Source of the DNA: a virus
Lineage: Duplodnaviria > Caudoviricetes
Virus record (IMG/VR): IMGVR_UViG_2831987924_000001
Strand: one strand, 5' to 3'
DNA: 64,000 nucleotides
Every line of letters begins with the position of its first letter. Within the stretch, counting starts at the first letter, position 1. The notes below the pieces were generated by a model. That model was not told the origin of the DNA. It ran no database searches and was given only the letters and a program-made list of their open reading frames with translations. Positions 2,933 to 5,298 of this stretch are shown piece by piece. The position numbers and the translations under genes were made by a program.

Positions 2933-3142
2933 TTATTGCATAACTATGCTTGTCACATACTTATAATAAACATTGTTATATTCATCTGTTTTTTCTTCAA
3001 ACAGATGAGCAAACTTTTTCCCGTGTGCTTTCGCTTCTTCTCTTGCTTCGTCAGTGTCTTCGACAATTTGATAATAGAGCTCTGCTCCTTCTTCAATTCG
3101 ATCAACGGCGAATTGTGAATTATAAGTGTAGATTGCGAACAT
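2933..3142 (-). CDS. Hypothetical protein
   Basis: MFAIYTYNSQF start with AGGAGTG SD. Confidence 0.7.
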   Translation of the reverse strand: MFAIYTYNSQFAVDRIEEGAELYYQIVEDTDEAREEAKAHGKKFAHLFEEKTDEYNNVYYKYVTSIVMQ

Positions 3143-3266
3143 TTTAAACACTCCTTTTTTTAATTTATTTTTTTTGGGATCACTCACCTTATCGTCGGCA
3201 CAAGCTCCCTTATGCCGACTGTAAGAGAAGCGATCATTTTTAAAAGTGCACGTCTACCAGCAACGG

Positions 3267-4822: not shown

Positions 4823-4873
4823 TCTAAACACTCCTTTTTATAATTTTCTTTAAAAGTAATATTTTATCGGCTT

Positions 4874-4936
4874 GCCATCGTCAGGTAGCAAGTTGCCATC
4901 TTGCTACGACAAGGGAATAACTTCCCTTGTTTCGGC
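4874..4936 (-). ncRNA. Type II hammerhead ribozyme
   Basis: Minus strand reads gcc-GAAA-caagggaa(guua)uucccuug-UC-guagcaag(auggcaa)cuugcuac-CUGACGA-u-ggc. Full catalytic core, perfect stems I and III, 3-bp stem II, GUC cleavage triplet at 4910-4908. Confidence 0.8.
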
Positions 4937-5101
4937 TTATTCTTCGAAAAATTCATCGAGTAAACGATCAAATTCATATATATTAAATTCATGCATATTA
5001 ATTTGATTAACCATTTCACCAGTCATTTCCTCTTTGTCACGAACGAATTCTTCTACACGGTCAGAAATCGAAAAGTTTAAACGTGTAAATTCTTTTTTCA
5101 T
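4937..5101 (-). CDS. Small acidic hypothetical protein (54 aa)
   Basis: MKKEFTRLNFSISDRVEEF...DEFFEE with AGGAGG SD; its stop codon abuts the hammerhead. Confidence 0.7.
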   Translation of the reverse strand: MKKEFTRLNFSISDRVEEFVRDKEEMTGEMVNQINMHEFNIYEFDRLLDEFFEE

Positions 5102-5127
5102 TTTTTCATTTCCTCCTTATAATTTTT

Positions 5128-5253
5128 AATAAAAACCAAACAACAGCCAGCAAACTGTCGTCGCGTGACCGTCACATGTATTATGGTGCTGCTCCCTCTT
5201 TCGAGATCGTCGCCAGCTCCGCTCGGTTTATTGGCTCTTGTTTAGTTTTTATT
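5128..5253 (-). ncRNA. Candidate structured RNA / 5' leader
   Basis: About 30-bp imperfect closing stem around a GC-rich core with a GAAA tetraloop and tandem GA pairs, just downstream of a sigmaA promoter. Confidence 0.55.
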
Positions 5254-5269
5254 GCCTTATCTGATTATT

Positions 5270-5298
5270 ATTATACAGGTGATTAGGTGATAAGTCAA
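5270..5298 (-). promoter_or_regulatory. sigmaA promoter
   Basis: TTGACT-17-TATAAT. Confidence 0.85.

Follow-up and report, generated by a model that had tools for sequence, protein, structure and literature searches.

In the accessible text of Perreault et al. (2011, PMC3088659), type II hammerhead ribozymes with a pseudoknot are found beside prophage genes, and the processing of long phage transcripts is proposed as their role. In these RNAs, loop I forms at least four pairs with bases just downstream of stem II, and mutation and rescue demonstrated that this pseudoknot is needed for fast cleavage, according to the same text. A processing role for phage hammerheads is likewise suggested in the available part of PMC6765202, which describes the biological role as unresolved across the whole hammerhead class. 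In Desulfovibrio vulgaris, in vivo cleavage has been demonstrated by cyPhyRNA-seq for three hammerheads of type II (Olzog et al. 2021, PMC8782182, accessible text). Of the phage records, only that of Geobacillus virus E3 (GVE3) is similar in sequence to the element described here. This virus, a temperate siphovirus of 141 kb whose host is Geobacillus (Parageobacillus) thermoglucosidasius, is cultured at 60°C and inserts itself into the chromosome of its host (PMC8303945, accessible text).

We analyzed a 64,000-nucleotide stretch of viral DNA (here called the window) from within a genome of 3.73 Mb. On its minus strand, which is also the strand of the flanking genes, positions 4936 to 4874 contain a complete type II hammerhead, with the core and stems I, II, and III (Table 1). 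Its layout is UAA/GCC-GAAA-(CAAGGGAA GUUA UUCCCUUG)-UC/(GUAGCAAG AUGGCAA CUUGCUAC)-CUGACGA-U-GGC-AAGCCG, where the slashes mark the end of a stop codon and the predicted cut. Because loops close stems I and III and stem II is open, the topology is type II. Every conserved position is present, namely, C3 U4 G5 A6 N7 G8 A9, G12 A13 A14, the A15.1-U16.1 pair, and an H17 that is not G. A preliminary description of this DNA, made from its letters alone, had recognized a complete core with perfect stems I and III (8 bp and 9 bp, respectively) and had placed the cut between 4908 and 4907, in agreement with the consensus position. It had also remarked on a stem II of only 3 bp with an extra U (4877). 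This observation is confirmed, and the arrangement is a trait of a large subfamily (at least 125 loci) rather than a defect. The window's genome and E3 each contain a single hammerhead copy, not a cluster.

The minimum-energy fold of positions 4945 to 4860, calculated with ViennaRNA, is exactly the hammerhead three-way junction (-26.4 kcal/mol, z = -3.98), and none of 200 shuffled sequences folds as well. The junction is still the minimum-energy fold at 55 to 70°C. A strict motif search matched once in the window and not at all in 100 shuffles, while a looser type II descriptor of our own design matched once in the window and once in total across 30 shuffled windows. The window element is a real type II hammerhead, with its catalysis predicted from sequence and fold.

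Table 1. Positions of the hammerhead and of the surrounding early transcription unit in the window
Feature	Coordinates	Strand	Remarks
Terminator-like hairpin of preceding unit	5370-5352	-	
Candidate promoter TTGACT-17-TATAAT heading the transcription unit	5270..5298	-	11/12 consensus matches
Conserved structured 5' leader	5115..5263	-	~150 nt
54-aa acidic ORF	4937..5101	-	Shine-Dalgarno AAGGAGG; UAA 4939-4937 abuts the ribozyme
Stem II 5' strand GCC	4936-4934	-	G11.3 C11.2 C11.1; sequence and fold
GAAA, 3' of stem II GCC	4933-4930	-	G12 A13 A14 = 4933-4931
Stem III hairpin with G12 A13 A14	4909..4933	-	9 bp, A4930-U4909 to A4922-U4917
Stem III loop GUUA	4921-4918	-	
A15.1-U16.1 pair closing stem III	A4930-U4909	-	Hammerhead consensus
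Predicted cleavage site	4907..4908	-	After C17 (C4908), before G1.1 (4907); consensus position
Stem I hairpin	4885..4907	-	8 bp, G4907-C4885 to G4900-C4892
Stem I loop AUGGCAA	4899-4893	-	
Core C3-A9 CUGACGA	4884-4878	-	
Extra U	4877	-	Between A9 and G10.1
Stem II 3' strand GGC	4876-4874	-	
3' tail AA then GCCG	4868..4873	-	GCCG = 4871-4868
Next cistron, 56 aa	4652..4837	-	Shine-Dalgarno AAAGGAG 4837-4831; ATG 4822
70-aa ORF	4617-4405	-	
138-aa ORF	4311-3895	-	

Scanning IMG/VR for a pattern made of the same core, a GCC/GGC stem II, and the extra U identified at least 125 viral-contig loci that share these features. By a strict ungapped count, 92 of the 125 distinct elements among the matches listed have clean stems, and N7 is U in 66, C in 19, A in 4, and G in 3 of these 92 listed relatives. 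We then aligned the window and E3 elements with those of 63 viral loci picked from the 125 listed, giving 74 rows, three of which are reverse-strand hairpin fragments. The loci were picked for distinct sequence and formed stems and the alignment was fitted to a model, both of which bias it toward structure; within it, 96.2% of cells are paired, compared with 64.7% in shuffles, and none of 500 shuffles reaches the observed value. Sliding the 3' partner by one to three columns lowers pairing in the 74 rows to 28 to 46%. In this structure-selected alignment, two-sided changes are found at all eight stem I pairs and at seven of the nine stem III pairs. Stem II, which is fixed by the search pattern so that its covariation is barely testable, varies in one U-A row out of 71 rows and in four G.U variants within the closest subfamily.

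These relatives also bear on loop I. The preliminary description noted that the loop I sequence repeats the 3' strand of stem II and could thus compete for the 5' GCC. The repeat itself stands, since the 8-mer GAUGGCAA is present at both 4900-4893 and 4879-4872. The proposed competition is not supported. Loop I pairs with the 3' tail in a pseudoknot that covaries, with two-sided changes at all five pseudoknot pairs of the 74-row alignment and pairing in 85.9% of the pseudoknot cells. In the window, U4898 G4897 G4896 C4895 of loop I pair with G4871 C4870 C4869 G4868, forming 4 bp (one of them G.U), in keeping with the minimum of about 4 bp that defines a pseudoknot linking loop I to the nucleotides immediately 3' of stem II. 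Mean pseudoknot length is 4.79 bp in the relatives among the matches listed, versus 3.71 +/- 0.085 bp when tails are permuted, and the partner sequences are diverse (UGGUCU/AGACCA, UGACC/GGUCA, UUGCC/GGCAA, and UUGGGG/CCCCAA are examples from a much longer series). Only 18 of the 92 listed relatives have GGC in loop I, and we therefore rejected the competing GCC:GGC pairing as a conserved feature. Judging from the sequences, the repeat in loop I makes better sense as part of the known loop I/3'-tail pseudoknot.

The preliminary description proposed checking the element against hammerhead models. No Rfam hammerhead model reports the window element, even at E <= 10. A scan of the 64-kb window at gathering thresholds gave no hammerhead model match, and neither did searches at E <= 10 of 451 nt and 96 nt around the element. 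RF02276 searched over the whole 3.73-Mb genome had no match at the hammerhead; it gave five weak matches elsewhere (14.2 to 16.4 bits), and the same search gives matches in 11 of 14 control genomes. The window element thus falls below the RF02276 gathering cut-off of 37 bits, which is an operational database criterion and not a feature of the RNA. The only match from the Rfam scans of the element, to Clostridiales-2 at 15.8 bits against a cut-off of 58.6, was taken as chance.

The relatives behave differently from the window element with the same model. When 20 relative loci were analyzed with cmscan, RF02276 was reported at 17 elements in 13 loci, eight of them at or above 37 bits (38.9 to 54.9); in the same run, RF02276 gave no report for the E3 copy at E <= 0.1. 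The alignments of these relatives place the 'ug' after A9 as an insertion relative to the model. Conversely, a covariance model built from the window and E3 elements retrieves 69 elements in the 63 viral loci supplied (E values of 1e-16 to 8e-4), including loci that score 38.9 to 54.9 bits with RF02276. It also found an additional hammerhead (L033 103-174) that lacks the extra U and has a G-U-C/G-A-C stem II. Since relatives are matched by both models, the window element is an AU-rich outlier of a subfamily that Rfam covers, and we attribute the Rfam miss to AU-rich stems confronted with a GC-rich model together with the 2-nt insertion.

In a separate observation on RF02276, its consensus structure line pairs model positions 2 and 3 with the 'Gc' after the core, so that one pair is G with G. 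Based on the printed consensus, the stem II register of the model may be shifted by one position.

Like the RF02276 type described in the accessible text of PMC3088659, the window element has the same core, a loop I/3'-tail pseudoknot of at least 4 bp, and a position between prophage genes. It differs in being a single copy instead of a cluster and in having a thermophile host that grows at about 60°C (PMC8303945, accessible text). Further differences are the AU-rich stems of 8 to 9 bp that the window shares with the E3 clade, scores that place the window copy and its E3 clade below every Rfam threshold (with E3 absent at E <= 0.1), and a stem II of 3 bp with a bulged U, where the RF02276 model has two paired positions. 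The hammerhead nevertheless belongs to the well-known phage kind, the RF02276 type, and the kind itself is not new. Taking these results together, we are confident, on the strength of sequence, modeled fold, and covariation among relatives, that it is a functional pseudoknot-stabilized type II hammerhead of the kind common in phages, located in an early operon of a GVE3-related prophage.

The E3 element (KP144388, 138435-138512) is identical to that of the window at 72 of 78 aligned bases and lies in a 680-nt gap without annotation in the E3 record. As in the window, a promoter-leader block is followed on the same strand by a small acidic ORF whose UAA is flush with the ribozyme. The two differ only at N7 (U in E3, C in the window), in loop III (CAAA versus GUUA), and in the tail (GCCA versus GCCG), the last of which gives E3 a U-A pseudoknot pair where the window has U.G. 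The ORF before the ribozyme encodes 45 aa in E3 and 54 aa in the window, an extra gene follows in E3, and the ORFs neighboring the hammerhead show no DNA match between window and E3.

A search pattern with loop I and the tail fixed defined a closest subfamily of 12 genome loci (mostly Lachnospiraceae metagenome-assembled genomes) and 32 viral loci, together comprising 30 distinct sequences. A tighter pattern yielded seven metagenome loci that form, with the window and E3, a GVE3-like clade of nine loci. The leader is upstream in six of these nine, where three types of ORF separate it from the ribozyme: 54 aa (window and L204), 45 aa (E3, L208, and L202), and an unrelated 119 aa (L206/L200). 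The seven metagenome loci keep the hammerhead beside different genes. In three of them (L203, L205, and L207), the unit has its own promoter but no leader, and the ribozyme lies 26 to 36 nt after a homologue of the window ORF at 3187-2933; related phages therefore carry it in different intergenic slots.

Among 48 genomes of the host family (one per species), the only other hammerhead match is a CRISPR spacer. This 39-nt spacer, at L149 1511-1549 in G034, a genome from another genus of the family, copies the part of the hammerhead that runs from where stem III ends as far as stem II. It agrees with the L205/L207 variant in 38 of its 39 bases; compared with the window, four stem I pairs carry changes in both partners. 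A related host has therefore gained immunity directed at the ribozyme region of a GVE3-like phage. The early region of the window itself contains a candidate RNA anti-CRISPR (Racr, in the sense of the accessible text of PMC10651486), a solitary CRISPR repeat at 2481-2510 on the minus strand that matches Rfam CRISPR-DR2 at 42.6 bits and lies 6 nt after a stop codon. This repeat is identical at 29 of 30 positions to that of the host genome's own CRISPR arrays (contigs C4 and C5, with a variant in C2), and the spacers of two host arrays that were checked against the window gave no match. In a 60-nt palindromic element of E3, located between GP198 and GP197 (L019 3030-3090), the CRISPR repeat's first 10 bases form the start and the reverse complement of those bases forms the end.

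Two further observations concern the wider relatives. Over about 8.4 kb of one 112-kb viral contig (L043-L049, contig positions 5908-14326), ten hammerheads belonging to the same subfamily are spread singly across the intergenic gaps. In addition, a twister-sister (L025 120-203, 74 bits) and a type P5 twister (L110 32-103, 43.2 bits) lie within about 200 nt of hammerheads, in line with the known tendency of self-cleaving ribozymes to cluster.

The genomic setting agrees with the placement of the ribozyme in an early operon by the preliminary description, as the small genes here lie behind sigma-A-type promoters recognized by consensus matches. The promoter layout of the unit is the same in E3 and L200. 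The leader that follows the promoter consists of a closing helix of about 25 bp around a domain of about 70 nt, ends in a terminator-like hairpin with a U run (5162-5130), and is conserved in E3, L200, and four of the seven metagenome loci. Compared with Rfam at E <= 10, it gave a weak caiA match alone (23.6 bits against a cut-off of 55.5). Possible functions of the leader are attenuation, action as a small RNA, and 5' stabilization. Its coordinates are 2200-2345 in L019 (E3) and 452-590 in L200, and the changes among the three sequences include one that is compensatory and two that are half-compensatory.

The 54-aa ORF between leader and ribozyme has a close homologue in L204 and a weak likeness (E = 0.013) to the 45-aa ORF at the same place in E3. 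No PHROG family was found for eight small ORFs around the hammerhead, including those of 54, 56, 70, and 138 aa, and terminator prediction found none between the downstream ORFs and none before 3895. An AU-rich block of about 27 nt is repeated, 93% alike, at 3140-3166 and 4831-4857, before a ribosome-binding site, and such a block recurs before early genes in the window and in E3-like loci.

The most likely role of the hammerhead is to cut the early polycistronic mRNA between cistrons. Transcription from the promoter at 5298-5270 would produce an RNA that folds into the three-way junction, in which loop I UGGC would pair with the tail GCCG and dock stem I against the short stem II. The RNA would then cut itself after C4908, presumably cotranscriptionally. 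The upstream product would contain the leader and the 54-aa gene. Its end, at the 9-bp stem III hairpin, would bear a 2',3'-cyclic phosphate and lie 29 nt past the stop codon, which should leave room enough for normal termination. The downstream product would carry the next three genes, have a 5'-OH at the foot of the 8-bp stem I, and keep the pseudoknot. We propose that, joined by only 3 bp in stem II, the products would separate immediately at about 60°C, so that the cut could not be reversed. Stability and translation of the first cistron would thereby probably be uncoupled from those of the remaining ones. Hairpins of this kind protect Bacillus-type mRNAs from exonucleases (RNase J1 and 3' exonucleases). 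We infer that type II suits intercistronic processing, as it is the only topology in which both products are capped by closed hairpins.

Other in-mRNA ribozymes provide points of comparison. The glmS ribozyme of Bacillus is metabolite dependent, and its 5'-OH product is degraded; RiboJ, a synthetic hammerhead insulator, leaves a hairpin at the new 5' end. The window element resembles both in its predicted self-cleavage within an mRNA and in a 5'-OH product whose fate would be unlike that of the uncut transcript. Unlike either, both of its products would end in hairpins, and no ligand is implied. The Desulfovibrio vulgaris hammerheads share with it the type II topology and a location near hypothetical and phage-like genes; those copies are active in cells (PMC8782182, accessible text), whereas activity of the window copy is predicted. 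As to expression, no sequencing run in our run search exceeded 0.06 of sampled words. Four runs gave only contigs, and two metatranscriptome contigs cross the predicted cut site; contigs are uninformative about RNA ends, and such libraries may also contain DNA. Contigs from hot-spring metatranscriptomes match the ribozyme (4863-4940) and the leader (5120-5275) and then diverge, which indicates presence only.

The position of the ribozyme relative to the upstream gene raises the possibility of a link to translation. As the preliminary description stated, the first base of the ribozyme directly follows the TAA of the 54-aa gene. The same flush stop codon is seen in E3 and is habitual across the family. 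A4937, the last base of UAA, is the conserved A before stem II. Among 99 distinct viral relatives in the matches listed, the base before GCC is A in 81, and a frame of at least 40 codons ends within 1 nt of the first G in 64, compared with a background of 1.6% at other positions of the same loci. These flush frames number 28, 25, and 11 at offsets of -1, 0, and +1, in listed relatives that are not mutually independent. Of 70 stop triplets found there in the 99 listed relatives, 64 close a frame of at least 40 codons, versus a background of 13%. In 46 of the same 99, a Shine-Dalgarno-like pentamer starts 5 to 14 nt after GGC, and 12 of the 30 distinct members of the closest subfamily are exactly flush. 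A full-text literature search did not find such a stop-codon habit of hammerheads, and the term 'stop codon' occurs 0 times in the main text (figures and supplements aside) of PMC3088659, PMC8782182, and PMC6765202.

We considered whether these frequencies reflect gating by translation. In this reading, which builds on the coupling suggested in the preliminary description, a ribosome terminating at the UAA would sit over GCC-GAAA plus the start of stem III and keep the ribozyme from folding, so that cleavage and the fate of the downstream genes would depend on how strongly the 54-aa gene is translated. The flush stops in the window and E3, their excess over background in the listed relatives and among stop triplets, and the flush members of the closest subfamily speak for this idea. 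However, tight gene packing combined with the conserved A before GCC explains flushness equally well, given that UAA or UGA can supply this A and UAG can share its G with the ribozyme. Moreover, in three of the nine loci of the GVE3-like clade, the ribozyme is not flush but 26 to 36 nt after the stop. Timing is a further difficulty. In Bacillus-type hosts, the polymerase outruns the first ribosome. Pseudoknot-stabilized hammerheads cleave fast (PMC3088659, accessible text), and on both counts, cleavage would usually occur before termination. Based on the nonflush clade copies, fast cleavage, and transcription that outruns translation, we favor tight packing with a stop-supplied conserved A and regard translational gating as unlikely.

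A different explanation is that the promoter-leader block and the ribozyme are kept mainly as stretches of homology that bound a swappable cassette, between which related phages would swap small early genes, with cleavage secondary or lost. The leader and ribozyme are indeed conserved while the ORF between them differs (the 54-aa, 45-aa, and 119-aa kinds), and the hot-spring contigs match ribozyme and leader before running into unlike sequence. Yet variation is found at N7, in the loops, and as compensatory stem pairs, with the core unchanged; because differences within the ribozyme follow RNA rules, selection appears to act on the RNA and not on DNA homology alone. The three clade loci L203, L205, and L207 also carry the ribozyme without the leader, after a different gene. 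We therefore consider a boundary role in place of ribozyme function very improbable, though the boundary and functional-ribozyme readings are compatible and not mutually exclusive. A combined scheme can be formulated for GVE3-like thermophilic phages, in which promoter, leader, and hammerhead would make up a self-contained expression cassette whose small early gene can be exchanged for another. In it, the leader would fix the 5' end, the ribozyme would set the 3' end 29 nt past the stop, the flush stop would make cleavage ribosome sensitive, and translation of the cassette gene would tune downstream release. We put this scheme forward as a speculative one that is probably not correct as a whole.

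Finally, a noncatalytic structure, whose two hairpins serve as an RNase entry site, stabilizer, or weak terminator around a core that is a chance occurrence or a relic, would accord with the Rfam silence and with catalysis that is predicted only, but is hardly credible given that all 13 conserved core positions are intact and kept in more than 100 relatives with differing stems, that the strict motif is absent from the shuffles, that no U tract follows either hairpin, and that the pseudoknot covaries in a manner sensible only for a folded ribozyme.

Cleavage of the early mRNA between cistrons by a functional hammerhead thus remains the reading we prefer. For the family, the results indicate that the Rfam type II model misses AU-rich members of its own family. 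For the phages, a cultivable temperate virus and a genetically tractable Geobacillus-type host make the processing and stop-codon questions testable at the bench, and the locus adds a thermophile example to a ribozyme class whose role in phages is unsettled.
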